DNA of 64,000 nt from Escherichia coli (GTDB taxonomy: Bacteria > Pseudomonadota > Gammaproteobacteria > Enterobacterales > Enterobacteriaceae), in assembly GCF_003334815.1 (NCBI RefSeq), contig NZ_QOWO01000018.1; one strand, 5' to 3'. Below, piece after piece: positions 6,736-26,431 of the stretch. A program made the position numbers and the translations under genes. Under the pieces are notes generated by a model. The model was not told where the DNA came from. It was given only the letters and a program-made list of their open reading frames with translations, and made no database searches. Position 1 is the first letter of the stretch. Each line of letters begins with the position of its first letter.

Positions 6736-7199
6736 ACTTCAACTTGGTAGCCTGTATCTTCCAGTGTGGGATTCATCGCCGCGGCACGAGCCAGTTCATC
6801 ACAGCGTTCGTTTTCCGGGTGTCCGGCATGGCCTTTAACCCATTCCCATTTGATTTGATGCTGCCCCAATGCAGCATCAAGACGTTGCCAGAGATCGACA
6901 TTTTTTACTGGTTTTTTGTCTGCGGTTTTCCAGCCACGTTTTTTCCAGTTATGGATCCACTGGGTGATACCCTGGCGGACATACTGGCTGTCGGTACTCA
7001 AAATGACTTCGCAATGTTCTTTTAACGCCTCCAGCGCGACAATAGCGGCCATCAACTCCATACGGTTGTTGGTGGTGCGGGTGTAGCCAGCGCTAAAGGT
7101 TTTCTCGCGTCCGCGATAGCGTAAAATAGCGCCGTAACCCCCAGGTCCTGGATTGCCCAGACACGAACCATCGGTGAAAATTTCTACCTGTTTAAGCAT
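6732..7199 (-). CDS. rnhA: Ribonuclease HI
   Basis: 155-aa product [26 protein letters not shown]... with RNase H catalytic residues; the ORF track's longer N-terminus rejected in favour of the ATG at 7199. Confidence 0.9.
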
Positions 7200-7263
7200 C
7201 TCTGGTAGACTTCCTGTAATTGAATCGAACTGTAAAACGACAAGTCTGACATAAATGACCGCT

Positions 7264-7995
7264 ATGAGCACTGCAATTACACGCCAGATCGTTCTCGATA
7301 CCGAAACCACCGGTATGAACCAGATTGGTGCGCACTATGAAGGCCACAAGATCATTGAGATTGGTGCCGTTGAAGTGGTGAACCGTCGCCTGACGGGCAA
7401 TAACTTCCATGTTTATCTCAAACCCGATCGGCTGGTGGATCCGGAAGCCTTTGGCGTACATGGTATTGCCGATGAATTTTTGCTCGATAAGCCCACGTTT
7501 GCCGAAGTAGCCGATGAGTTCATGGACTATATTCGCGGCGCGGAGTTGGTGATCCATAACGCAGCGTTCGATATCGGCTTTATGGACTACGAGTTTTCGT
7601 TGCTTAAGCGCGATATTCCGAAGACCAATACTTTCTGTAAGGTCACCGATAGCCTTGCGGTGGCGAGGAAAATGTTTCCCGGTAAGCGCAACAGCCTCGA
7701 TGCGTTATGTGCTCGCTACGAAATAGATAACAGTAAACGAACGCTGCACGGGGCATTACTCGATGCCCAGATCCTTGCGGAAGTTTATCTGGCGATGACC
7801 GGTGGTCAAACGTCGATGGCTTTTGCGATGGAAGGAGAGACACAACAGCAACAAGGTGAAGCAACAATTCAGCGCATTGTACGTCAGGCAAGTAAGTTAC
7901 GCGTTGTTTTTGCGACAGATGAAGAGATTGCAGCTCATGAAGCCCGTCTCGATCTGGTGCAGAAGAAAGGCGGAAGTTGCCTCTGGCGAGCATAA
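7264..7995 (+). CDS. dnaQ: DNA polymerase III epsilon subunit (3'-5' proofreading exonuclease)
   Basis: [19 protein letters not shown]... DEDD exonuclease motifs; divergent from rnhA as in enterobacteria. Confidence 0.9.
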
Positions 7996-8070
7996 ATACC
8001 TGTGAAAGGCGCTAAAAATAGCGACTTGGGCGATTTTTGCAGCAAACGATTCAAAAGATGAGAAAAACCG

Positions 8071-8099
8071 TTGACGAAGGTCGAGGCAATCCGTAATAT
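8071..8099 (+). promoter_or_regulatory. Sigma-70-type promoter for aspV
   Basis: TTGACG, 17-bp spacer, TAATAT, about 30 bp upstream of the tRNA 5' end. Confidence 0.5.
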
Positions 8100-8127
8100 T
8101 CGCCTCGTTCCCAACGGAACACAACGC

Positions 8128-8204
8128 GGAGCGGTAGTTCAGTCGGTTAGAATACCTGCCTGTCACGCAGGGGGTCGCGGGTTCGAGTCCCGTCCGTTCC
8201 GCCA
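8128..8204 (+). tRNA. aspV: tRNA-Asp (GUC anticodon)
   Basis: Identical 77-nt tRNA-Asp sequence ending in CCA; tRNA genes are common island integration sites. Confidence 0.95.
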
Positions 8205-8234
8205 CTATTCACTCATGAAAATGAGTTCAGAGAG

Positions 8235-8265
8235 CCGCAAGATTTTTAATTTTGCGGTTTTTTTG
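8235..8265 (+). terminator. Rho-independent terminator after aspV
   Basis: ccgcaa-gatttttaattt-ttgcgg followed by a T7 run. Confidence 0.6.
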
Positions 8266-8531
8266 TATTTGAATTCCACCATTTCTCTGTTCAATGATTT
8301 TACTCTGGCGTAGGTGCGTGATTCTCGCTTGTTGTCTCATTCATTAAAATTCAATAATGATATCGAACCATTCAGCTTAAATATATTTCTAGAGAATAAA
8401 TTTATATTGATTAAATGAATGTATATTTCAAATTGATTTTGTTTGTTATTATTTAAGTGAGGTATATAATTAGAGTCCGTTATCAATGCTAAATATTCTA
8501 ATCATTATGACAGGCGAGGGAGTGTCCAATT

Positions 8532-9317
8532 ATGAATTCAAAAAAGCTTTGTTGCATATGTGTGTTATTCTCGCTGCTTGCAGGATGTGCCTCTGAATCT
8601 TCTATTGATGAAAAGAAGAAAAAAGCTCAAGTCACACAAAGTAATATTAATAAAAACACTCCCCAGCAACTGACAGACAAAGATTTATTCGGTAATGAAA
8701 CCACTCTGGCCGTATCCGAAGAGGATATTCAAGCTGCGCTTGATGGAGATGAGTTCCGCGTTCCCCTTAATTCTCCTGTAATACTTGTTCAATCCGGCAA
8801 CCGCGCACCGGAAACCATTATGCAGGAGGAGATGCGAAAATATTATACTGTTTCCACATTCTCTGGTATCCCGGACAGGCAAAAGCCTCTGACTTGTAAC
8901 AAAAACAAAGATAAAAATGAGAACGAGGATGTTGCCAGTGCTGAGAATATGAACTGGATGCAGGCACTGCGTTTTGTGGCTGCAAAAGGACATCAGAAAG
9001 CGATTATTGTTTACCAGGATATGTTGCAGACAGGAAAATATGACTCTGCGCTGAAATCAACAGTATGGTCCGACTATAAAAATGACAAACTCACTGACGC
9101 TATCTCCCTGCGCTACCTGGTACGTTTCACGCTGGTGGATGTGGCAACAGGTGAGTGGGCTACCTGGTCGCCGGTGAATTATGAATATAAAGTGCTTCCA
9201 CCATTGCCCGACAAGAATGAAGCCAGTACGACTGATATGACAGAGCAGCAAATCATGCAACTTAAGCAAAAGACCTATAAAGCGATGGTAAAAGATTTGG
9301 TTAACCGCTATCAATAA
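8532..9317 (+). CDS. yafT: Putative lipoprotein
   Basis: 261-aa ORF with lipoprotein signal peptide and lipobox (SLLAGC); AT-rich context downstream of aspV. Confidence 0.75.
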
Positions 9318-9453
9318 TAAATTATATCTGCCGCCAGGAATTTCTGGCGGCAATAATACAAAATTCTTTGCATAAGAAATTTTTCTTGACAAAGACAGTG
9401 CAAGAAAGGACATGGAATCCGGAGTTAAAAACTGTTTGTTTTAGAATATTTAA

Positions 9454-9933
9454 TTATTTAACTGCTGAATCTTCCTTGCGAGAAATATATCCATTATTAC
9501 ATTTCATGCCATTTTTAATATAGATTGCTCCTGGGAAAATTCCCGTATTATTACCGCAGGGGTGATAATTAGTATTGACATATCCTGTGACAAAAGGAGC
9601 TATTAAAGGTGCTATTACGATAGCTATTAGTAAAAATATAAGAGTTAGCTGTATTGTTATGTCTGTGGCGAAATTGACTACCTTCGTTTTTTTGATTAAG
9701 AATGATTTTATTATCGTAAGTAAAATTACATGAATATTTAAAAAGGAAAACGACATGAAACCGAAGCACAGAATCAACATTCTCCAATCATAAAATATTT
9801 CCGTGGAGCATTTTATTATTGAATATAGAGGTTTAACTCCGGTAAAAAACAAAGAAGCATTGAATGCAGGGAAAAATAATATGGCCATAAAAAACATCGA
9901 AAGAAACTCTTTTAATTTAACATGTAAACGCAT
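9454..9933 (-). CDS. ykfM: Small multi-pass membrane protein (candidate immunity protein)
   Basis: 159-aa very hydrophobic low-GC ORF; RBS GAGGA upstream; immediately downstream of the yafU-like gene. Confidence 0.65.
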   Translation of the reverse strand: MRLHVKLKEFLSMFFMAILFFPAFNASLFFTGVKPLYSIIKCSTEIFYDWRMLILCFGFMSFSFLNIHVILLTIIKSFLIKKTKVVNFATDITIQLTLIFLLIAIVIAPLIAPFVTGYVNTNYHPCGNNTGIFPGAIYIKNGMKCNNGYISRKEDSAVK

Positions 9934-9942
9934 GGTTAATCC

Positions 9943-10857
9943 TCATATCACGGGTGGAGTGTTAAGAACATACATAAATGGAGTCATGTTTTCCCTTTTC
10001 CATTTATCAAGTTCCTGTTGCCGTTTTAGTCCATCTCTAATTGCATATTTTAATTTTTCTGATAAATGGCATTGAGCATCGATTTCATTTAAAACAACTG
10101 TACACACTATCCCTGTCAGTAAAATTGCTCCTCCGACAAGAATTACTGGAAAGCCAAAGCTAACACAGGCAAAAGAAGCCAGACTTCCAATAGCGGTTGC
10201 AACACCACCGGCTATAACTGCTTTGGCCACATCCATTGAAAAATCGCCAAGAAAATTAACCAGATCTCGCTCTGAACTCATAATAAATTCTATGGTTCTC
10301 CAGGCTACTGAAAACCAGATACAGAACTTAACTCCTTTTATTGATTCAGATAAAGCTCCTCGCCAGCCAATAGCGAGTTCCAGAACTTGAGGCGCTCGTG
10401 AAGAGAAAATATATTTACCGAGCTTTTCTAAAAGCCAGGGGCTGGATGTTGTGATTTTTATATATTTCTCTCCAAGTATTTCAAAGTAACTTGCTTTTGT
10501 ATACTTTAAGGCATTAAGGTTAAATATAATTTTCCCATTGTCATCAAACTCAGTCATTAATTTACCCGCGTTAACTAACCAGGCGAGTGTATCTTTTATA
10601 CCTGAAGGATGTGTAGTGATAAAATGAATGTAATCAAATGATGTTATTGGGCTGAGTATTTTTTTTGCAACATCAAGTGTCAAGGGAATAACATGATGAG
10701 TGTTCTGATGCCTTAACTCATCAATGAGTGGGACGTCGTTAAGATAAGGGTGCTGAGGTACTAGCTGGTTTATCGGCTGAGCCCCCCGAAGAATGTCACC
10801 CACATAATCAGCCCACTGTGCATTCTGTGTGTTGTTGTTATTCCTTAAACCAGCCAT
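9943..10857 (-). CDS. yafU-like membrane protein with C-terminal transmembrane region (candidate Hcp-associated effector)
   Basis: ORF 9943..10872; ATG at 10857 preceded by GGAGAG RBS; C-terminal hydrophobic stretch VAKAVIAGGVATAIGSLASFACVSFGFPVILVGGAILLTGIVCTVVL; sits 43 bp downstream of hcp. Confidence 0.55.
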   Translation of the reverse strand: MAGLRNNNNTQNAQWADYVGDILRGAQPINQLVPQHPYLNDVPLIDELRHQNTHHVIPLTLDVAKKILSPITSFDYIHFITTHPSGIKDTLAWLVNAGKLMTEFDDNGKIIFNLNALKYTKASYFEILGEKYIKITTSSPWLLEKLGKYIFSSRAPQVLELAIGWRGALSESIKGVKFCIWFSVAWRTIEFIMSSERDLVNFLGDFSMDVAKAVIAGGVATAIGSLASFACVSFGFPVILVGGAILLTGIVCTVVLNEIDAQCHLSEKLKYAIRDGLKRQQELDKWKRENMTPFMYVLNTPPVI

Positions 10858-10900
10858 TTTATCTCTCCGCAATAGTAATTTATTATGTTATTACAGTAAG

Positions 10901-11383
10901 TTACTGTACACGATCCTGCCATTTACTCATTGCATTCGTACCGGCTAACGTATGCTCCCAGGAAATATCTTCATAAATAAAGGCAATTCTCTCCTGTGGT
11001 TCCAGTTCTTTTTCCAGGACAGCATGCGGTGTGACAAAATCAATACTTGATATTCGGGCTTTTGACAGATTTATTTTATAATAAGGCTGGTAAATACCCG
11101 CTTTACTGGTTCGGTAGAGTATAAATTCACATATTGCCATTTTTTCATTGTCACTAAGTGCTTTTGCCAGCAATGGTGAGGATTTATCAACCGGTTTGGT
11201 GATAATTAATTCATGATGATTGACATTTTGACTTCTTGAGATGGAATGCATTAACGCATAAACCATGATCTGATCTTTATGTTCTGGCTGCGCTTTGTTT
11301 CCGACAGAATCAAGCGTTGAGCAACCTGCTGAAATTAGCCCTTGTGTCTCTCCACTCAAAGATAAATAACTTATATTTGCCAT
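10901..11383 (-). CDS. hcp: Type VI secretion system tube protein Hcp
   Basis: 160-aa ORF with Hcp-family features (KPVDKSSPLL, C-terminal ...IYEDISWEH...); strong AGGAG RBS. Confidence 0.8.
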   Translation of the reverse strand: MANISYLSLSGETQGLISAGCSTLDSVGNKAQPEHKDQIMVYALMHSISRSQNVNHHELIITKPVDKSSPLLAKALSDNEKMAICEFILYRTSKAGIYQPYYKINLSKARISSIDFVTPHAVLEKELEPQERIAFIYEDISWEHTLAGTNAMSKWQDRVQ

Positions 11384-11406
11384 GATAATCTCCTTTAATT
11401 AAATAA

Positions 11407-12009
11407 TTATTTTTCGGCCGTGGTACCGGTTGCCGCCTCTGGCATGACGTTATTCTTCAGCAGCAGCCAGCGGCTTAACACGCCTTCGAGTCGCTCATTA
11501 ATTTGTTTTTCCAGCGCATCTGTATTCTGCTTCTGCGCACGGGCATCATGGTACTGCGTCAACAGAGACTCAACGGGTGTTTCCTGCCCCAGTCCCCGCT
11601 CCGCCTGCCAGATGACATTTTTGATATAGGAAAGGGTTAGTCCCTCTTTCTCGCGCTGCATCACTAGATCTGCAAAAGCATGTAAGTCCTGGCGGGTCTG
11701 CAACCAGCCACGCAACTGCGGGCTACTCTGTGCGCGGGTTTTGAGTGCCTCATTCCATTGTGTCGAGGCCTGTTGCTGTTGCAGGCTTTCCGGCCAGCGA
11801 CTGTCGGCAACACGCATCATCTGCATCCCGGTTTCCAGCGGCTGTACCGGGGAGGTATCAAGAAGTTGTTGCAGCCTGCGCTCATAGTTTTCGAGTTCAG
11901 GTGAGGCCATCCACACCGTTGCTGCGCCCTGAGCGGTGTCGTTAACCTGTAACAGTTGCTGCTGCACCGGATAGACCTGCCACCACCACAATGCTGAGGC
12001 GACAGCCAC
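11407..12009 (-). pseudogene. T6SS-associated membrane-anchored protein, probable fragment (family unassigned)
   Basis: In-frame translation opens right after the tssB stop with a hydrophobic helix (GFIAGIACSVAVASALWWW) but no ATG; only a GTG at 12009; Gln-rich soluble domain; no tssC follows tssB. Confidence 0.4.
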
Positions 12010-12071
12010 TGAACAGGCGATCCCTGCGATAAACCCTCTTACCGTAACCCTGTTTAATGAAATAGTGGTGG

Positions 12072-12572
12072 TTATTTATTGCTCACCTGGCCGATTTCTT
12101 TGAGCAACTGCTCGCGGGACTCTTCATTTTCCAGCAATGCCTGGAGCTGGGTACGGAATGCCGGAAGGTTACCCATCGGCCCCTTCAGTGCAGTCAGTGC
12201 TTCACGCAGTTCCAGCAATTTATTCACTTCCGGAACCTGCCGGGCCACGCTATCTGGTGAAAAATCATCCAGTGACTTGATATTCAGCGCCACATTCAGC
12301 TCATCGTCCGTTGTGCTTCCCTTCAGCGTGGCGGGGACGGTAAAATTGAGGCCAATGGCTGCTTCAGCCATCACTGCACCGAAATTGTGCTTGTTAACGG
12401 AAACTGCCTGACGTTCATCCAGTGAGGATGTTTCCTGCGTATTTCCGGTATCGCCGACAACGAGCATGTTAAGCGGAAGTTCCACTTCAGCCGTCTGGCC
12501 ATCTGTTTTTGGGACATACGATATATTAATACGTTCGCGAGGCGCGACGCTGCCTTCAAATTTTTTGCTCAT
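12072..12572 (-). CDS. tssB: Type VI secretion system contractile sheath small subunit TssB (VipA family), orphan
   Basis: 166-aa ORF with TssB-like N-terminus (MSKKFEGSVAPRERINISYVP...ELPLNMLVVGD); not followed by a tssC gene. Confidence 0.75.
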   Translation of the reverse strand: MSKKFEGSVAPRERINISYVPKTDGQTAEVELPLNMLVVGDTGNTQETSSLDERQAVSVNKHNFGAVMAEAAIGLNFTVPATLKGSTTDDELNVALNIKSLDDFSPDSVARQVPEVNKLLELREALTALKGPMGNLPAFRTQLQALLENEESREQLLKEIGQVSNK

Positions 12573-13266
12573 AAAAGTGATCCGTCATGTTATCTCGTAC
12601 AGGCCATGAACACGGCATATTCGTACCGTAAAAAATATCGGAAATGCCGCCTTGATGGCGGTGAAAATAAAATCACCACTCCTTCATCACCCCGCATTTT
12701 ACGCTTCAAAATAAATAAGAAAAGGACTTTTTATCGATCGTAAAGAGGGGTATTCTGCAAGCGTTAAATAGATTGTATGAACCTGTGCAATTCGCGTCAG
12801 GTGTATTATGGCAATAATTTAAATATAGAATTTTTATGTATCTTATTGAATTATATAATAATTTTATTAAACATAAGCTAATCTAATGATTGCTTGTTTA
12901 TATATTTGTTTTGTGATTGATTAAGTGGGTATTTTTAAGGAATATCTCAAAAATTATCAAAATGATAATTCAGAAAGGATAAATACAATATTTATTCATG
13001 ATTCAGCTTTGGCCATTTTATGGAGGCAATACGGACTTTGAACAGTTGGGTATGGTTATCCAGATATATATTATTAAGTTATTGCTGAATAAGAGATTTA
13101 ATGATTTTAAAAATAGTTTTTACGACAACCGTAAATTCTAGCTCGGTTTGTATGTAAAAAATACTGAAAATGATGCGGTTCCGTGAAGTGAGCTGCATCT
13201 GCCTGTCTGGGATTAACGGCAGGTCATTGTAAGTAGTAATTAACCACGTTAACAAGGAGTTTACAA
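12573..13266. promoter_or_regulatory. AT-rich divergent intergenic region between tssB and the Hcp-Rhs gene
   Basis: About 700 bp of low-GC non-coding sequence flanked by divergently oriented genes; typical of xenogeneic promoter regions. Confidence 0.4.
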
Positions 13267-14610
13267 ATGCCAACACCGTGTTATATCTCCATCACTGGTC
13301 AGACCCAGGGAAATATTACTGCAGGTGCATTTACCGCTGATTCTGTCGGCAACATCTATGTGCAGGGGCACGAAGACGAGATGCTGGTGCAGGAATTCCT
13401 GCATAACGTTACTGTCCCGACCGATCCTCAGTCCGGTCAGCCTGCGGGTCAGCGTGCTCACAAGCCTTTCATTTTTACCGTGGCGCTGAACAAAGCGGTT
13501 CCGCTGATGTACAACGCACTGGCCTCCGGCGAAATGCTGCCAACCACTGAACTTCACTGGTGGCGTACCTCTGTGGAAGGCAAACAGGAGCATTATTTCA
13601 CTACCCGCCTGACTGATTCGACGATTGTCGATATGAAACTGCATATGCCGCATTGCCAGGACCCGGCGAAACGCGAGTTTACGGACTGCTCGGGGTACAC
13701 GACGCGGTATGAGTACGACTGGTACGGTCAACAAATCGCCGTTCACCGGGAGGAAGGCATCAGCACTTACAGCAGTTATAACCCGCGTGGGCAACTGGTC
13801 AGTCAGAAGGATGCGCAGGGGCGGGAGACCCGTTATGAGTACAGTACCGCAGGCGACCTCACCGCTATCATTGCCCCGGACGGTAGCCGCAGTGAGACAC
13901 AGTATGATGCGTGGGGTAAAGCCATCAGCACCACGCAGGGCGGTCTGACGCGCAGCATGGGGTATGACGCTGCCGGGCGCATCACCGTGCTGACCAACGA
14001 GAACGGCAGCCAGTCCACGTTCCGGTATGACCCGGTGGACAGGCTGACTGAACAGCGCGGCTTTGACGGGCGGACGCAACGTTACCATTATGACCTGACC
14101 GGAAAACTCACGCAGAGTGAAGACGAGGGGCTTATCACCCTCTGGCATTACGATGCGTCAGACCGTATCACCCGGCGCACGGTGAACGGTGAACCGGCGG
14201 AGCAGTGGCAGTATGACGACCACGGCTGGCTGACAGAAATCAGCCACCTGAGTGAAGGCCACCGTGTGGCGGTCCACTACGGCTATGACGATAAAGGCCG
14301 CCTGACGGGCGAACGGCAGACGGTGGAGAACCCGGAGACGGGGGAGATGCTGTGGGAGCATGAGACGGGGCATGCGTACAGCGAACAGGGGCTGGCGACC
14401 CGTCAGGAGCCGGACGGTCTGCCGCCGGTGGAGTGGCTGACGTATGGCAGCGGTTATCTTGCGGGGATGAAGCTGGGCGGAACACCGCTGGTCGAGTACA
14501 CGCGGGACAGGCTGCACCGTGAGACGGCCCGCAGCTTCGGCGGGGAGGCATATGAACTTGCCACCGCCTGGAATACCAGCGGCCAGCTCCGGAGCGATTC
14601 ATGTCATTAG
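13267..14610 (+). CDS. Hcp-Rhs fusion, N-terminal fragment (Hcp domain plus YD repeats), truncated
   Basis: N-terminal about 140 aa Hcp-like ([20 protein letters not shown]...), then YD/Rhs repeats ([54 protein letters not shown]); ORF ends abruptly at the junction with the H-repeat fragment; AAGGAG RBS. Confidence 0.75.
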
Positions 14611-14629
14611 TGCGTTCTCAACAATGCAC

Positions 14630-15358
14630 AGTCTGGTCATCGGACAGATCAGGACGGATGAGAAATCCAATGAGATTAGAGCTATCCCTGAACTTCTTAA
14701 CATGCTGGATATTAAAGGAAAAATCATCACAACTGATGCGATGGGTTGCCAGAAAGATATTGCAGAGAAGATACAAAAACAGGGAGGTGATTATTTATTC
14801 GCGGTAAAAGGAAACCAGGGGCGGCTAAATAAAGCCTTTGAGGAAAAATTTCCGCTGAAAGAATTAAATAATCCAGAGCATGACAGTTACGCAATGAGTG
14901 AAAAGAGTCACGGCAGAGAAGAAATCCGTCTTCATATTGTTTGCGATGTCCCTGATGAACTTATTGATTTCACGTTTGAATGGAAAGGGCTGAAGAAATT
15001 ATGCGTGGCAGTCTCCTTTCGGTCCATAATAGCAGAACAAAAGAAAGAGCTAGAAATGACGGTCAGATATTATATCAGTTCTGCTGATTTAACCGCAGAG
15101 AAGTTCGCCACAGCAATCCGAAACCACTGGCACGTGGAGAATAAGCTGCACAGGCGTCTGGACGTGGTAATGAATGAAGACGACTACAAAATAAGAAGAG
15201 GAAACGCAGCAGAATTATTTTCAGGGATACGGCACATTGCTATTAATATTTTGACGAATGAGAAGGTATTCAAGGCAGGGTTAAGACGTAAGATGCGAAA
15301 AGCAGCCATGGACAGAAACTACCTGGCGTCAGTCCTTGCGGGGAGCGGGCTTTCGTAG
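14630..15358 (+). pseudogene. yafF: H-repeat-associated (ISAs1-family) transposase, C-terminal fragment
   Basis: Translation ...[17 protein letters not shown]...FAVKGNQ...[10 protein letters not shown]... matches the C-terminal part of H-rpt/ISAs1 transposases; no N-terminal half. Confidence 0.7.
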
Positions 15359-15398
15359 TAATACCCCGACTCTCCCCGTCCTTAAACACAACCCCCAC

Positions 15399-16169
15399 TC
15401 ACCACAACCTAAACTCATCCGCATCCTGCCATGCCGGAAACTTTTCTCTATATTCCCGCAATGCTGCCATCGACAGCTCCGCATCAATGCGCGTTGCCTG
15501 ATGCGCGTCGGCAGTAGCGATAATCTCTCCTTGCGGATTAATCACCCGGCTGTCACCGCGATAATGGCAGCCGTTGCCATCGCTGCCGACGCGATTGCAT
15601 CCCGCCACATACGCCTGATTCTCAATCGCGCGGGCCGTCAGCAATGCCTGCCAGTGCAGAGAGCGCGGAGCAGGCCAGTTGGCGACGTACAGGGCGAGGT
15701 CATAATCGTTGAGATTGCGCGACCACACAGGAAAACGTAAGTCGTAGCACACCAGCGGCAAAATACGCCAGCCGCGCCATTCCACAATCACTCGCGCATT
15801 GCCCGCTTTATAATGTAGATGCTCATCTGCCATGCGGAACAGATGACGCTTATCATAAAAATGTACCGTGCCGCCCGGCTCAACCAGCAAAAAGCGGTTA
15901 ACCGAACCAGACTCCGTTTGTAATGCAACACTGCCTGCAATCAGCGCATTGCACTGCTGCGCCTTAGCTGTCATCCAGTTCACTACGTCATCTTGTGCTA
16001 GCGACGAAGCTGCCGCTTCCATGGCAAAGCCGCTGGTAAACATCTCCGGTAGAACGATCACATCGCGCCCGGTAATACCTTCCAGTTGACGATCAAAATG
16101 ACGCAGGTTGGCAGGACCATCCATCCACACCAGTGGTTGCTGCAAAAGCGTAATCTTCAAACCAGGCAC
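15399..16169 (-). CDS. yafV: Omega-amidase (nitrilase-superfamily C-N hydrolase)
   Basis: CN-hydrolase motifs (catalytic Cys in LPLVCYDLRFP); GTG at 16169 with AAGGAG RBS chosen over the TTG opening the ORF-track call. Confidence 0.8.
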   Translation of the reverse strand: MPGLKITLLQQPLVWMDGPANLRHFDRQLEGITGRDVIVLPEMFTSGFAMEAAASSLAQDDVVNWMTAKAQQCNALIAGSVALQTESGSVNRFLLVEPGGTVHFYDKRHLFRMADEHLHYKAGNARVIVEWRGWRILPLVCYDLRFPVWSRNLNDYDLALYVANWPAPRSLHWQALLTARAIENQAYVAGCNRVGSDGNGCHYRGDSRVINPQGEIIATADAHQATRIDAELSMAALREYREKFPAWQDADEFRLW

Positions 16170-16322
16170 GGTGTACAACTCCTTTATGCGAAGGGTTTTA
16201 TAACTTTAACACCTTATCAGGCAGTTGCCTTAGCGCAGAATAAATTGATAACAAATGCTGATATTGGAAATATCTGATTTGCAAATTATCGTGTTATCGC
16301 CAGGCTTTAGGAGGTTAATAAC

Positions 16323-16796
16323 ATGGGCAGGATAAGCTCGGGAGGAATGATGTTTAAGGCAATAACGACAGTCGCCGCTCTGGTCATCGCCACCAGTGCA
16401 ATGGCGCAGGATGATTTAACCATTAGCAGCCTTGCAAAGGGCGAAACCACCAAAGCTGCATTTAATCAGATGGTACAAGGGCATAAGCTGCCTGCCTGGG
16501 TGATGAAAGGCGGTACTTATACTCCCGCACAAACCGTAACGTTGGGAGATGAGACGTATCAGGTGATGAGCGCGTGCAAACCGCATGACTGTGGCTCGCA
16601 ACGTATCGCTGTGATGTGGTCCGAGAAATCTAATCAGATGACGGGGCTGTTCTCGACTATTGATGAGAAAACGTCGCAAGAGAAACTCACCTGGCTGAAT
16701 GTGAACGATGCGCTTTCGATTGATGGTAAAACGGTGTTGTTCGCGGCGTTGACCGGCAGCCTGGAAAACCATCCGGATGGCTTTAATTTTAAATAA
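16323..16796 (+). CDS. ivy: Inhibitor of vertebrate lysozyme (periplasmic)
   Basis: 157-aa ORF with signal peptide and conserved CKPHDC loop motif. Confidence 0.85.
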   Translation: MGRISSGGMMFKAITTVAALVIATSAMAQDDLTISSLAKGETTKAAFNQMVQGHKLPAWVMKGGTYTPAQTVTLGDETYQVMSACKPHDCGSQRIAVMWSEKSNQMTGLFSTIDEKTSQEKLTWLNVNDALSIDGKTVLFAALTGSLENHPDGFNFK

Positions 16797-16812
16797 TTAG
16801 CGGATAAAGAAA

Positions 16813-16835
16813 CGGAGCCTTTCGGCTCCGTTATT
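16813..16835. terminator. Bidirectional terminator between ivy and fadE
   Basis: cggagcc-tttc-ggctccg followed by ttatt. Confidence 0.55.
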
Positions 16836-16838
16836 CAT

Positions 16839-19283
16839 TTACGCGGCTTCAACTTTCCGCACTTTCTCCGGCAACTTTACCGGCTTCGTCGCCAGCTCTT
16901 CCGGATCAAAGTCATCAACGTTAATACTGCGCAGACGGCTTTCTTCAGCTTTCACCAGAATAGCGGCTTCATCTTTATCAATCAGCCCCTTCACCAGCGC
17001 GTTGTGCGCCAGTTCATCCAGACGGGTAAACGGCAGGTTTTTACCCAGCTCTTTACAGATCCGCTGATGAATTGGGTCGGCGGCAATCACATCCACCAGC
17101 GCCTCTTCCAGCAAGCCAACCGGATTATGCTCGCTCGGCGTCAGGTACTGACCGCGACCAATGCGGGAACGGGTGGCGTTCGGCACTTGTAAAATCTTCG
17201 CCACTTTATGATCCAGCTTGTCAGAAGGTGCCAGATAATGACGTCCGGTCGGGAAGATCACCACATTCAGCAGCCCGGCAACCACGCGGTTCGGGAAGTT
17301 TTGCAGTAAATCATCCATCGCCTGTTCAGCCTGATACAGCGCATCTTGTACGCCCCAGTGCACCAGCGGCAGGTCGGCTTCATTACGGCCTTCGTCGTCA
17401 TAACGCTTCAGCACGGCAGAGGCGAGGTAGAGCTGGCTTAAAATATCCCCCAGACGGGCCGAGATGCGCTCGCGACGTTTCAGGCTGCCGCCCAGCACTG
17501 CCATCGAGACATCAGAAAGCAGGGCGAGGTTGGCGCTCAGGCGGTTCAGGTGCTGATAGTAGCGTTTAGTGGCATCGCCGGTTGGCGTGCTGCTGGTTAA
17601 ACCGCGCGTCAGGCCCAGCCAGAAGCTGCGAACTTTGTTGCTACCGACGTGACCGATATGTTTGAACAACAGTTTATCGAACGCGTTGACGTCATTGTTC
17701 TTCGCCGCTTCCATCTCTTCCAGCACGTACGGATGGCAACGAATCGCTCCTTGTCCGAAGATCATCATGCTGCGGGTCAGAATGTTAGCCCCTTCAACGG
17801 TGATGGCAATCGGTGCGCCCTGGTAAGCACGCGCCAGGAAGTTGCTTTGCCCGAGCATAATGCCTTTACCGCCGGTAATATCCATCGCATCAATAATCGA
17901 CTGCTGCCCGCGGTGGGTACAGTGATACTTAACGATAGCCGACAGCACGGCAGGTTTTTCGCCGAGCATAATGCCGTAGGTAATCAGCGATGCCGCAGCA
18001 TCCATCACGTAGGCATTACCGGCAATACGCGCCAGCGGCTCTTCAATCCCTTCCATCTTACCAATAGAGATTTTGAACTGACGGCGAATGTGAGCATACG
18101 CGCCGGTTGCCAGCGCTACCGATTTCACGCCGCCGGTTGAGTTGGAAGGCAGGGTGATGCCGCGGCCTACCGAGAGGCACTCCACCAGCATCCGCCAGCC
18201 TTGCCCGGCCATTTTCGGCCCGCCGATGATGTAATCGATCGGCACGAAGACATCTTTACCGCGCGTCGGTCCGTTCTGGAACGGTACGTTCAGCGGGAAG
18301 TGGCGACGACCAATTTCCACGCCCGGCGTGGTGGTTGGGATCAGCGCACAGGTAATGCCTAAATCTTCTGCACCGCCGAGTAATTTTTCCGGGTCGGAGA
18401 GTTTAAACGCCAGCCCAAGCACGGTCGCAATCGGTGCCAGCGTAATGTAGCGTTTGTTCCAGGTCAGACGCATCCCCAGCACCTGCTGGCCCTGCCATTC
18501 GCCCATGCAGACAATCCCGGTGTCCGGAATCGCGCCCGCATCGGAACCCGCTTCCGGGCTGGTCAGTGCAAAGCAGGGGATCTCCTGACCACGCGCCAGA
18601 CGCGGCAGATAGTGATCTTTCTGCTCGTCAGTGCCGTAATGTTGCAACAGTTCGCCCGGGCCTAATGAGTTTGGCACGCCGACGGTAATCGCCAGGATCC
18701 CGCTCACGCCGGAGAGTTTTTGCAGCACGCGAGACTGGGCATAAGCCGAGAACTCCAGCCCGCCGTACTCTTTTTTGATGATCATCGCGAAGAAACGATG
18801 CTCTTTAAGGTACGCCCACAACTCCGGCGGCAGATCCGCCAGCTCATGGGTGATCTGGAAATCATTCGCCATCCGGCAGGCTTCTTCTACCGGGCCGTCG
18901 AGAAACGCTTGCTCTTCGGCGGTCAGGCGCGGCTGCGGATAGTTATGCAGCTTTTTCCAGTCCGGCTTGCCCTGGAACAAGTCGCCCTCCCACCAGGTGG
19001 TGCCCGCATCAATCGCTTCTTTCTCAGTGCGCGACATCGGCGGCATCACCTTACGGAAACCGCGAAATACCGGCGCGGAAATCATCGACTTACGCATAGG
19101 CGCAAAGTTAAATGGCACGAGGATAATGGCCAGAGGCACCAGTACCCACGCCGACCACAGACCAGCAACGCCGAGGGCGGCTGTCCAGGCGAGCAAAATC
19201 AGACTGCTGATAAATAAGCTCACGCGGTGATAGAACAACGCGCCGAGCAGGACAACCGTAGCGAGAATACTCAAAATCATCAT
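16839..19283 (-). CDS. fadE: Acyl-CoA dehydrogenase (fatty acid beta-oxidation)
   Basis: Start chosen at the internal MMILSIL (814 aa) rather than the 840-aa ORF-track start; N-terminal membrane segment plus acyl-CoA dehydrogenase domains. Confidence 0.9.
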
Positions 19284-19522
19284 AACGAAAAGCCCCTTAC
19301 TTGTAGGAGGTCTGACCACTTGTGATGATATGGTTGTAGTGGATGCAAAAACATTTAGCAATATGTTTACAATATAATTACAACAAAGCTCACATTGTTG
19401 CTGTTTTTATCCGCACTTCAGGTCAAAAAGTCCTGGTCATAGCACCTGCCCGTACTTCTCGCTTTTGGCGGTATCCGGTACACTGCATTTTGTCTATTAC
19501 ATTTATGCTGAAGGATATCCTC

Positions 19523-20101
19523 ATGTACCAGGATCTTATTCGTAACGAACTGAACGAAGCGGCGGAAACGCTGGCTAACTTTTTAAAAGATGACGCCAAT
19601 ATTCACGCCATTCAGCGCGCGGCGGTCCTGTTAGCAGACAGCTTTAAAGCCGGTGGCAAAGTGCTTTCCTGCGGCAACGGCGGTTCCCATTGCGACGCTA
19701 TGCACTTTGCCGAAGAGTTGACCGGTCGCTACCGTGAAAACCGTCCGGGCTACCCGGCGATTGCTATTTCTGACGTTAGTCATATTTCCTGCGTCGGTAA
19801 TGATTTCGGTTTCAATGATATTTTCTCCCGCTACGTTGAAGCGGTAGGTCGCGAAGGCGATGTACTGCTGGGGATCTCCACCTCCGGTAACTCTGCAAAC
19901 GTGATCAAAGCGATCGCAGCGGCGCGTGAGAAGGGAATGAAAGTGATCACCCTGACCGGTAAAGACGGCGGCAAAATGGCTGGCACGGCGGATATCGAAA
20001 TTCGCGTACCGCACTTTGGTTATGCCGACCGCATTCAGGAGATTCACATTAAAGTGATCCATATCCTGATCCAGTTGATTGAAAAAGAGATGGTTAAGTA
20101 A
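19523..20101 (+). CDS. gmhA: Phosphoheptose isomerase (sedoheptulose-7-phosphate isomerase)
   Basis: 192-aa product [17 protein letters not shown]... SIS-domain motifs ([11 protein letters not shown]); ATG at 19523. Confidence 0.9.
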
Positions 20102-24337: not shown

Positions 24338-26431
24338 TTACATCAACGCCCCCATAATCTTCAACTCCAGCTCATCCGGCACTTCGTTATACGACAGCAC
24401 ATGCAGCCCCGGCGCAAACAACCTTGCATAACGCGCCAGCAAAGGGCGCAGCTGCGGTGGCACCAGCAGCACCGGGTCTTTCCCCGCCGCTTTCATCTGC
24501 TCTTTCACCTGTGGCATCGTACTCTGGAACTGGTTGAGCATATTCGGATCGACCGGCACGCTGTCGAGCATCACTTTCCCGCCCTGTTGCGCCTGATTCA
24601 CCACGTTGGTCAGCAGATTTTCCAGCTCATTATTCAGCGTATACACCGTCAGCTCCTGCTTGCGAACGAACGGATGGGTAATGCTGCGCCGCAATGCCAG
24701 GCGCACATCGGCCGCCAGCAGAATATGATCTTTCGTCACCGTGCTACTGGCGACCAGCACGGTGGCGATGGTGACGATATCGCGCAGGGAAACGCCTTCG
24801 GTCAGCAGCGTCCGGTACACTTTCAGCAACTGGCTGTAATTGAGCGCCGCGCTCAAATCTTCCGCCAGACGCGGTGCCGTCGACGATAAACGGTTATGCA
24901 ACTGCGTAATATCATCATAGTTAAACAAATCAGGAATATAGCTGCGCACAATCTTATTTACATGGGTAGCGATCACGCTGGCGCTGTCGATCACCTGATA
25001 CCCCATATTCAGCGCCTTCGCTTTCTGCGCCGCCTGGATCCAGGTGACCGGCATCCCGTACGCCGGGTCGTTCCCCTGCACGCCGTCAATCTCGCCGTAG
25101 GTTTCGCTGGAGGGCAGGGCCATCAGTTTATCCGCCGGAATATCCGCTTCATCAGCCTTTATGCCGTTGATGAAAATGGCGTACTGACTGGGCTTAAGGC
25201 GGAAGTTTTCCCGAATGCGGATCTCCGGCAGCAGCACGCCGTTGCCGTCAGAAATCACCTGCCGCACGCCGCGAATCCGCTGGGTGAGCGGGTTACCCTG
25301 TGCTTTGTCCACCAGCGCCACCAGTTTGTAACCGAGGCTTAAACTGATAGGCTCGATCAGCGGAATGGTTTCCCAACTGACCTGCTGCTCGCTGGTTTCG
25401 GTGATGGTGCGGGTCAGCGTTTCGAGGCTTTTCTCTTCCGCCTCCGCCGCCAGCGGCTGTTTGCTCATCCGCCAGCCGGTAAAACCAAGCAGGGCGCTGA
25501 ACAGCAAAAACGGCAGGTGCGGCATTCCCGGTACCACCGCCAGCACGAACATAATCCCGGTGGCGGTGTAGAGCACCGACGGGCTTGCCAGCAGCTGGTT
25601 ACGCACGTCATGGGCGATATCGCCGTTGTCGCTGACGCGGGTGACGATAATCGCCGCCGCGGTGGAGAGCAGCAGGGAAGGGATCTGCGCCACCAGGCCG
25701 TCGCCGATGGTCATCAGCACATACTGCTGGAAGGCAGCATCGGCGCTCAGGTTGTATTTGAAGATCCCGATACAGACGCCGCCGATCAGGTTGATCGCCA
25801 GAATCATCATCCCGGCGATGGCGTCCCCGCGCACAAACTTCGATGCCCCGTCCATCGCGCCGTAGAAATCGGCCTCGCTGGCAACATCTTTACGCCGGGT
25901 TTGCGCCTGCGCCTGGTTGATCAATCCGGCGTTAAGATCGGCGTCAATCGCCATCTGTTTGCCGGGCATCGCGTCTAAGGTAAAGCGGGCAGAAACCTCG
26001 GAAATACGCTCGGCCCCTTTGGTGACGACAATAAAGTTGATGATCATCAGGATGATAAACACCACGAAGCCGACGACAAAGTTGCCGCCGATCACCACCT
26101 GACCAAACGACTCAATCACCTTACCCGCCGCGCCCGCGCCGAGATGCCCGTGCAGCAGCACCACGCGCGTAGAAGCAACGTTAAGCGTCAGGCGCATTAA
26201 GGTGGTGATCAGCAAAATGGTCGGGAACAGGCTGAATTCCAGCGGTCGTTTCGCCGACACCGCCACCAGCAGCACCATCACCGCCAGCACAATGTTGAAG
26301 GTGAACAGAATATCCAGCAGCGCAGGCGGCAGCGGCAAAATAACCATCGCCAGAATACACAGGATCACCAGCGGCACGCCGAGATTGCCGCCGCGCAGCA
26401 GCGCGAGGAACGATTTAGTTGTTTTCGCCAT
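24338..26431 (-). CDS. lfhA: Lateral flagellar export apparatus protein, FlhA homologue
   Basis: 697-aa full-length FlhA-family protein (N-terminal TM domain, FHIPEP region). Confidence 0.85.
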   Translation of the reverse strand: MAKTTKSFLALLRGGNLGVPLVILCILAMVILPLPPALLDILFTFNIVLAVMVLLVAVSAKRPLEFSLFPTILLITTLMRLTLNVASTRVVLLHGHLGAGAAGKVIESFGQVVIGGNFVVGFVVFIILMIINFIVVTKGAERISEVSARFTLDAMPGKQMAIDADLNAGLINQAQAQTRRKDVASEADFYGAMDGASKFVRGDAIAGMMILAINLIGGVCIGIFKYNLSADAAFQQYVLMTIGDGLVAQIPSLLLSTAAAIIVTRVSDNGDIAHDVRNQLLASPSVLYTATGIMFVLAVVPGMPHLPFLLFSALLGFTGWRMSKQPLAAEAEEKSLETLTRTITETSEQQVSWETIPLIEPISLSLGYKLVALVDKAQGNPLTQRIRGVRQVISDGNGVLLPEIRIRENFRLKPSQYAIFINGIKADEADIPADKLMALPSSETYGEIDGVQGNDPAYGMPVTWIQAAQKAKALNMGYQVIDSASVIATHVNKIVRSYIPDLFNYDDITQLHNRLSSTAPRLAEDLSAALNYSQLLKVYRTLLTEGVSLRDIVTIATVLVASSTVTKDHILLAADVRLALRRSITHPFVRKQELTVYTLNNELENLLTNVVNQAQQGGKVMLDSVPVDPNMLNQFQSTMPQVKEQMKAAGKDPVLLVPPQLRPLLARYARLFAPGLHVLSYNEVPDELELKIMGALM

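Follow-up and report, generated by a model that had tools for sequence, protein, structure and literature searches.

Does a single open reading frame (ORF) that begins as Hcp and continues as Rhs encode an evolved type VI secretion system (T6SS) effector, or is it what remains of a damaged effector locus? The question is raised by a stretch of 64,000 nucleotides of an Escherichia coli chromosome (contig NZ_QOWO01000018.1, hereafter the window), which carries the T6SS island at tRNA-Asp (aspV). Within this island an uninterrupted ORF at 13267-14610 on the plus strand encodes 447 residues according to the ORF list of the window. A preliminary description had read it as a complete Hcp-like domain fused to an Rhs cage and toxin, cut short by a fragment of an H-repeat (H-rpt) insertion sequence (IS). 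The succession that it described in one ORF, Hcp followed by Rhs repeats and then by an ISAs1/H-rpt fragment, is borne out by the ORF list and by Pfam and NCBIfam searches. The origin of the ORF, which was settled by comparative genomics within E. coli, is a different one: judging from these comparisons, it is almost certainly a chimeric pseudogene that arose through two recent, independent microhomology-mediated (illegitimate) deletions in an hcp-vgrG-rhs-immunity-ISEc1 module, in the background of a K-12-like E. coli.

Structure and origin of the 447-codon ORF

Two near-identical genomes, of strains 52F4 and LZHX12, served for comparison, and window coordinates were mapped onto segments of both. 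The ancestral order is tssB, facing away from hcp (172 residues), then vgrG (713 residues), rhs (~1411 residues), two small ORFs, a full ISEc1 and yafV. The ancestral rhs consists of a DUF6531 N-terminus, a YD shell, the PF03527 core end and a toxin tip. The components of the window locus are listed in Table 1.

Table 1. Positions of the chimeric ORF components, deletion scars and neighboring T6SS remnants in the window.
Feature	Position	Strand	Remarks
Segment absent from K-12 MG1655	10300-15077		4778 bp; 5-bp overlap at the K-12 junction
Second hcp-family gene, intact, 160 residues	10901-11383	-	TIGR03344 profile 1-166/167
VasL-domain fragment	11407-12009	-	C-terminal ~200 of ~450 residues; from annotations, mapping and PF12486 on the identical product in GCA_037967415.1
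Third deletion scar	12045-12046		VasL gene interior joined 27 nt downstream of tssB
tssB, sheath small subunit, orphaned T6SS remnant	12072-12572	-	TIGR03358, 170.9 bits
Native hcp 5' intergenic region	12573-13266	+	100% identical upstream of intact hcp in 52F4 and LZHX12
hcp'	13267-13679	+	Codons 1-137 of 172-codon tssD/hcp; from profile and parental-allele comparison
Junction J1	13678-13679		Scar of 4197-bp deletion, microhomology TT (2 bp; imperfect TTyAC)
Internal rhs fragment	13678-14595	+	Codons 556-861 of ~1411-codon Rhs; YD-repeat shell only
Junction J2	14591-14595		Scar of 2821-bp deletion, 5-bp microhomology GGAGC
ISEc1 (ISAs1 family, H-rpt) transposase fragment	14591-15358	+	Codons 124-378 and stop; without own start
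ORF end	14596-14610	+	Four out-of-frame IS-derived codons (D-S-C-H) and TAG

The junction between the Hcp and Rhs parts (J1) is resolved by strain 52F4. Window 8001-13679 is 100% identical to 52F4 segment 2125-7803, and window 13678-17000 matches 52F4 segment 12001-15323 with 99.8% identity; between the two blocks, 52F4 has 4197 bp that comprise the last 35 hcp codons, the 2142-bp vgrG and the first 555 rhs codons. The flanks in 52F4 are near-identical and the DNA between them has been kept there, which identifies J1 as the scar of a deletion, and the evolved-Hcp architecture proposed in the preliminary description is replaced by this comparison with the product of a deletion. In the three-way alignment, hcp (...GCGAGTT/CACCCAG) and rhs (...GGCCTT/TACGGAC) give GCGAGTTTACGGAC in the window. 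The reading frame is kept: codon 138 of hcp and codon 556 of rhs meet as whole codons. When 5426 complete E. coli genomes were surveyed for both junctions, J1 was found as contiguous sequence in none of them; it is present in three draft assemblies (GCA_037967415.1, GCA_965212685.1 and GCA_900450225.1).

Strain LZHX12 fulfills the same role for the junction between rhs and the IS (J2), where GGAGC bounds the 2821 missing bases in both parents. Beyond the point corresponding to J2 the LZHX12 rhs goes on for 550 codons, including the PF03527 core end and the tip, and is followed by two small ORFs, a complete 378-codon ISAs1/ISEc1 transposase gene (LZHX12 12727-13863; the intact IS lies ~800 bp downstream of the rhs stop) and yafV. 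The window rejoins LZHX12 at transposase codon 124, so that the Rhs C-terminus with its toxin, both small ORFs, and ISEc1 codons 1-123 with the left end of the element are lost. Only 52F4 shares J2 among the complete genomes surveyed. At the positions of J1 and J2 we found no signatures of insertion, that is, neither target-site duplications nor mobile-element ends.

The transposase fragment that follows J2 scores 260.9 bits with NF033564 (NCBIfam cutoff 70 bits) over profile positions 97-314 of 314; it is not complete, as profile positions 1-96 are gone and the 2821-bp deletion took the left end. An inverted-repeat search for the ISEc1 termini in LZHX12 returned only an internal 12-nt pair and did not define the ends of the element. 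The ORF was described earlier as breaking off exactly where the H-rpt fragment, named yafF, begins. Its stop indeed lies 15 nt past the start of the ISAs1-family fragment, but K-12 yafF corresponds only to the last 189 nt of that fragment (15170-15358).

The N-terminal part of the ORF certainly derives, on profile and allele comparison, from an hcp gene. The TssD profile TIGR03344 matches residues 1-140 with 168.7 bits, above its cutoff of 58.9 bits, though with partial coverage (profile 1-138 of 167), and T6SS_HCP (PF05638) matches residues 18-128 (E=4.5e-25) over model positions 8-113 of 129 only. A complete Hcp core of ~160 residues was therefore not found in the ORF, contrary to the complete Hcp-like domain claimed before; the parental allele, 100% identical at the DNA level, encodes 172 residues and covers profile positions 1-166. 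Identity of the chimera to the Hcp protein ends at residue 139, where Rhs too reads F-T, and 33 C-terminal residues of the parental allele are absent. These include Y148, I151, W153, H155, G159, T160 and W166, which are invariant in a four-sequence Hcp alignment, and the last three beta-strands of the barrel, 141-147, 150-155 and 161-165 in an AlphaFold2 model of the intact protein (predicted local distance difference test score 72.6, moderate confidence). The intact 172-residue Hcp aligns over residues 2-171 with the Vibrio cholerae Hcp contained in the solved sheath-tube structures 5MXN and 5OJQ (E=2.4e-85, 73% identity). An N-terminus that did not align to Hcp had been named as evidence that would overturn the earlier description; the N-terminus does align, but incompletely, which in spirit counts against that description.

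The Rhs part is a fragment of the shell. With 100% identity to LZHX12 segment 9357-10274, it retains 306 codons, ~22% of the ancestral Rhs of ~1411 residues, which together with 137 hcp codons and four terminal codons make up the 447. Seven RHS_repeat matches (Pfam, E <= 0.013) cover ORF residues 138-350, and RHS_core NF041261 matches residues 137-444 with 619.5 bits over profile positions 549-860 of 1261; the curated cutoff of 2000 bits is not reached, and the fragment is not a full-length core. DUF6531, which belongs to the N-terminal (PAAR-like/DUF6531) region for T6SS loading and is found at residues 50-127 of the 52F4 rhs, lies in the part deleted from the window. The PF03527 core end is found at residues 784-819 of the LZHX12 rhs fragment (LZHX12 segment 8805-11927), and neither PF03527 nor its PxxxxDPxGL motif is present in the chimera or anywhere in the 64-kb window. 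A search of the whole window for the missing parts gave no vgrG, rhs N-terminus or rhs C-terminus elsewhere and no match to the LZHX12-type small ORFs, the position directly 3' of the chimera being taken by the ISEc1 fragment. The C-terminal extension contains no toxin domain, only RHS/YD repeats that end in the four out-of-frame IS codons. Searches of the window uphold the earlier statement of a locus without Rhs core end, toxin tip or immunity gene.

In LZHX12, residues 931-1021 of the rhs fragment, within the toxin tip, show a weak match (E=0.0016) to YkuD, an L,D-transpeptidase catalytic domain, and in strain EC05 the gene just downstream of rhs is annotated as belonging to the L,D-transpeptidase family. 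These observations hint at a peptidoglycan-targeting activity of the ancestral Rhs tip.

Taken together, the comparisons point to a stepwise loss. A deletion between the VasL gene and tssB, common to the window and 52F4, removed the secretion apparatus; the 2821-bp deletion at GGAGC, also common to both, connected rhs codon 861 with ISEc1 codon 124; and the 4197-bp deletion at TT, in the window lineage only, brought rhs codon 556 behind hcp codon 137, by chance in frame. In K-12 MG1655 a further deletion of 4778 bp would have removed the chimera, leaving yafU and yafF as the end point. All three deletion scars of the window lie at microhomologies of 2-5 bp, and the parental sequences can still be read in near-identical relatives; such deletions would be explained by replication slippage or illegitimate recombination. 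If made, the product is predicted to form neither a properly folded Hcp ring subunit nor a closed Rhs shell. As three strands, the plug, the autoprotease/core end and the toxin are missing, the locus would support no tube, toxin encapsulation or secretion, and the chimeric product would have no effector function. The locus would be drifting toward the K-12 state.

Several observations weigh against this interpretation. The fusion is in frame, and the native hcp upstream region and ribosome-binding site are kept (Shine-Dalgarno AAGGAG at 13254-13259), so that the chimera may be transcribed and translated from the native hcp signals. No later inactivating mutation was seen in the chimera in the window, and a protein could be made. 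The order of the three deletions, moreover, rests on the single complete genome of 52F4 and not on a phylogeny. A scan of 12500-15450 for sigma-70 promoters and terminators returned matches no commoner than in shuffled sequences and is uninformative on expression.

The G + C content changes in steps at the component boundaries, from ~54% in hcp to 59-67% in rhs and ~40% in the IS. On the minus strand, 13261-14148 forms a 295-residue ORF opposite hcp' and GC-rich rhs sequence; composition most likely explains this frame as an artefact, the Rhs sequence having 60-67% GC.

Alternative explanations and recurrence of the fusion

A genuine specialised Hcp that carried an Rhs cage and toxin by covalent linkage and was truncated later at its 3' end by H-rpt would likewise appear as one uninterrupted ORF in which an Hcp match is followed by RHS repeats, and the literature describes specialised Hcps with C-terminal toxins in Enterobacteriaceae. 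Such a protein would not be expected to lack the last 33 residues of Hcp and to enter Rhs at parental codon 556, and in 52F4, where identity up to the junction is 100%, hcp, vgrG and rhs are separate genes. In addition, the evolved Hcps that have been surveyed carry comparatively short C-terminal domains and RHS domains attach to PAAR, so a true Hcp-Rhs protein would have been unusual. We regard this origin as extremely unlikely; for the window locus, the sequence comparison with 52F4 and LZHX12 already refutes it. The transposase offers a different route to J2, if H-rpt inserted into rhs or the IS caused a deletion next to itself. Rhs loci are the classical setting of H-rpt elements, the association recurs in the annotations of the compared genomes, and ISAs1-family sequence directly adjoins the broken rhs. 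Either event would leave an intact IS end, whereas the IS here lacks codons 1-123 and its left end, the break falls within the transposase ORF, at a microhomology of 5 bp and without an IS terminus, and the same IS is intact downstream of a complete rhs 3' end in LZHX12, N61 and FORC 064. A role of the transposase in J2 is accordingly very unlikely. Because the J2 deletion also took the left end and 123 codons of ISEc1, the element is best seen as a victim of this deletion; it neither inserted into rhs nor caused a deletion beside itself. Of the two causes previously offered for destruction of the locus, IS activity or deletion, deletion is retained and IS activity falls away, the IS itself being truncated at the microhomology; that an Rhs-type T6SS effector locus was wrecked is corroborated by mapping of the deletions to 52F4 and LZHX12.

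A mis-join between repeated Rhs or IS sequences during assembly or sequencing also deserves consideration, as E. coli has multiple copies of Rhs and ISAs1 sequences (a 2.4-kb query matched a median of 7 places per genome) and the draft contig of GCA_037967415.1 has another context downstream of the IS fragment. However, at least three independent assemblies have both junctions with identical bases, one of them on a 4.66-Mb long-read contig (GCA_900450225.1), and J2 is in the complete genome of 52F4. J1 links the unique hcp to rhs at 2 bp of homology and has no repeat-collapse signature. The exact 447-residue product is encoded on two NCBI draft contigs, seen in 8 and 2 samples, and has been deposited as CAM9414072.1, "hypothetical protein". 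Recurrence in independent assemblies rules out an assembly artefact, to which we assign a practically negligible probability. The two deletions thus stay the preferred origin of the chimera.

In GCA_037967415.1 (contig JBBPGO010000021.1, 8092-13344) a second ISAs1-family gene, and not yafV, comes after the ISEc1 fragment, and beyond it lie a DUF1722 gene, a photolyase gene, an MFS/PTR2 transporter gene and a DUF34_NIF3 gene, which look like the K-12 ybfD-ybgA-phr-dtpD-ybgI neighborhood. This context would fit a large rearrangement between copies of H-rpt or a mis-join caused by repeats. GCA_900450225.1 (UGFG01000001.1, 3490440-3497405) has both junctions; over 7 kb, 7 indels set it apart from the window, and through them hcp', the IS fragment and yafV are each called as several genes. 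These indels are probably homopolymer errors of long-read sequencing and not biology. The split of hcp' into products of 114 and 321 residues in this National Collection of Type Cultures (NCTC) assembly was considered as further decay and rejected, read errors being the most likely source of the indels.

Deletions that end inside the same rhs have occurred independently in at least six other strains, and most of them start in or just after hcp. LZHX12 (from 123 nt after hcp to 52F4 segment position 11449) and N61 (from the hcp-vgrG spacer to position 12067) keep hcp intact, so that a reading frame does not apply. Fusions to the rhs interior from hcp codon 74, in 2013C-4974 and seven similar genomes, and from the hcp 3' end, in FCI56, are out of frame. 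In strain 300081 the deletion runs from hcp codon ~131 to rhs codon ~411 and is in frame, with the core end, toxin and small ORFs kept. EC05 has a deletion from the hcp interior into rhs, and that of FORC 064 starts in tssM and ends in rhs (frame not applicable).

The fusion in 300081 (NZ_CM128587.1, segment 6738-10151) joins Hcp residues 1-131 to Rhs from ~411 to its end; it keeps the PxxxxDPxGL core end and is annotated as pseudo 'tssD' by the Prokaryotic Genome Annotation Pipeline (PGAP). Similar to the window, it was made in frame by an independent deletion with one end in hcp and the other in the same rhs, and the local T6SS is disrupted, with tssM adjoining the fusion and tssB and tssC missing from their usual place. 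In contrast to the window, other breakpoints were used, and the Rhs 3' end, core motif, toxin tip and small ORFs are retained.

In-frame Hcp'-Rhs' chimeras have thus appeared more than once, in the window lineage and in 300081, and could have been kept because they do something: such a protein might act inside the cell independently of a T6SS, might poison tube assembly of a second T6SS in a dominant-negative manner, or might provide raw material for true Hcp-Rhs effectors. With the window counted, two of the four fusions with a determined frame are in frame, where one in three is expected by chance. This proportion is close to chance and gives no indication of selection for the fusion; selection for in-frame fusions was considered as a candidate and is unsupported. 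Retention for a function has, in our estimate, only a very small probability.

The surrounding island and the K-12 state

The gene order around the chimera is yafT, ykfM, a 309-codon ORF, the second hcp, the VasL fragment, tssB, the chimera, the IS fragment, yafV, ivy and fadE. Only tssB, the VasL fragment and the second hcp remain of the local T6SS cluster. In other strains the two points joined at the third scar are separated by a small ORF, tssC, tssE, tssF, tssG, tagH, tssA and tssM. This scar and J2 are common to the window and 52F4; J1 is not.

Strain K-12 MG1655 has the same chromosomal site, between yafT/ykfM and yafV, in a more reduced form. MG1655 segment 1-3103 corresponds to window 7197-10299 (100% identity) and segment 3099-8001 to window 15078-19980 (99.98%). 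K-12 has also lost the second hcp, the VasL fragment, tssB, the chimera and most of the IS fragment, and its yafU is the stump of the 309-codon ORF (9943-10872). Loss of the intervening segment from a sequence like that of the window would create the K-12 yafU-yafF pseudogene junction, and the window shows this decaying island at a less reduced stage. K-12 keeps nothing between the endpoints, and its ancestor may or may not have passed through exactly the window state.

Farther along the window, at ~24300-63400, a long run of ORFs starts with one of 697 residues (24338-26431, minus strand) and one of 379 residues, located where 52F4 has flhA/flhB annotated. The region looks like a lateral-flagellar (Flag-2) cluster. 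K-12 has largely lost its Flag-2 cluster.

Comparison with known Hcp and Rhs systems

We found no paper on aspV, T6SS and Rhs in E. coli that describes the decay of this locus. In kind, it is a stage in the already well-known reductive decay of the T6SS/Rhs island in commensal, K-12-like E. coli, and its biological weight is small: this is ordinary gene decay and not a new kind of toxin. Together, the window, 52F4 and LZHX12 form a base-resolved series of deletions, each at a microhomology of 2-5 bp, that leads from a working hcp-vgrG-rhs module toward K-12 yafU/yafF. The chimera is of practical value as a base-resolved intermediate on the path along which the aspV T6SS island decays, and as a documented false positive for architecture-based effector mining. 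It passes the operational test for a specialised Hcp, an Hcp match with more than 60 extra residues in one ORF, and surveys of domain architecture would score both the chimera and the 300081 fusion as false evolved Hcps.

The closest known arrangement is the hcp-vgrG-rhs-immunity module with a downstream H-rpt/ISEc1, partly kept in 52F4, LZHX12, N61 and EC05. The pieces in the window are 99.8-100% identical to this module, whereas vgrG, the DUF6531 region, the core end, the toxin, the small ORFs and the left part of the IS are not in the window.

The specialised Hcps in the published survey consist of an Hcp core of ~160 residues with more than 60 extra residues, and the validated ones have short toxin domains. 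Like Hcp-ET1 to Hcp-ET5 of Enterobacteriaceae, the chimera has an Hcp-family N-terminus and more than 60 extra residues in a single ORF. In contrast to them, with their full Hcp core, short toxin domain and immunity gene, it has a truncated Hcp, a fragment of an Rhs shell, neither toxin nor immunity gene, and an origin by deletion. Judged on Hcp core, toxin domain and adjoining immunity gene, the ORF has nothing of such an Hcp effector beyond "Hcp match plus extension", and it also lacks the defining features of an Rhs toxin.

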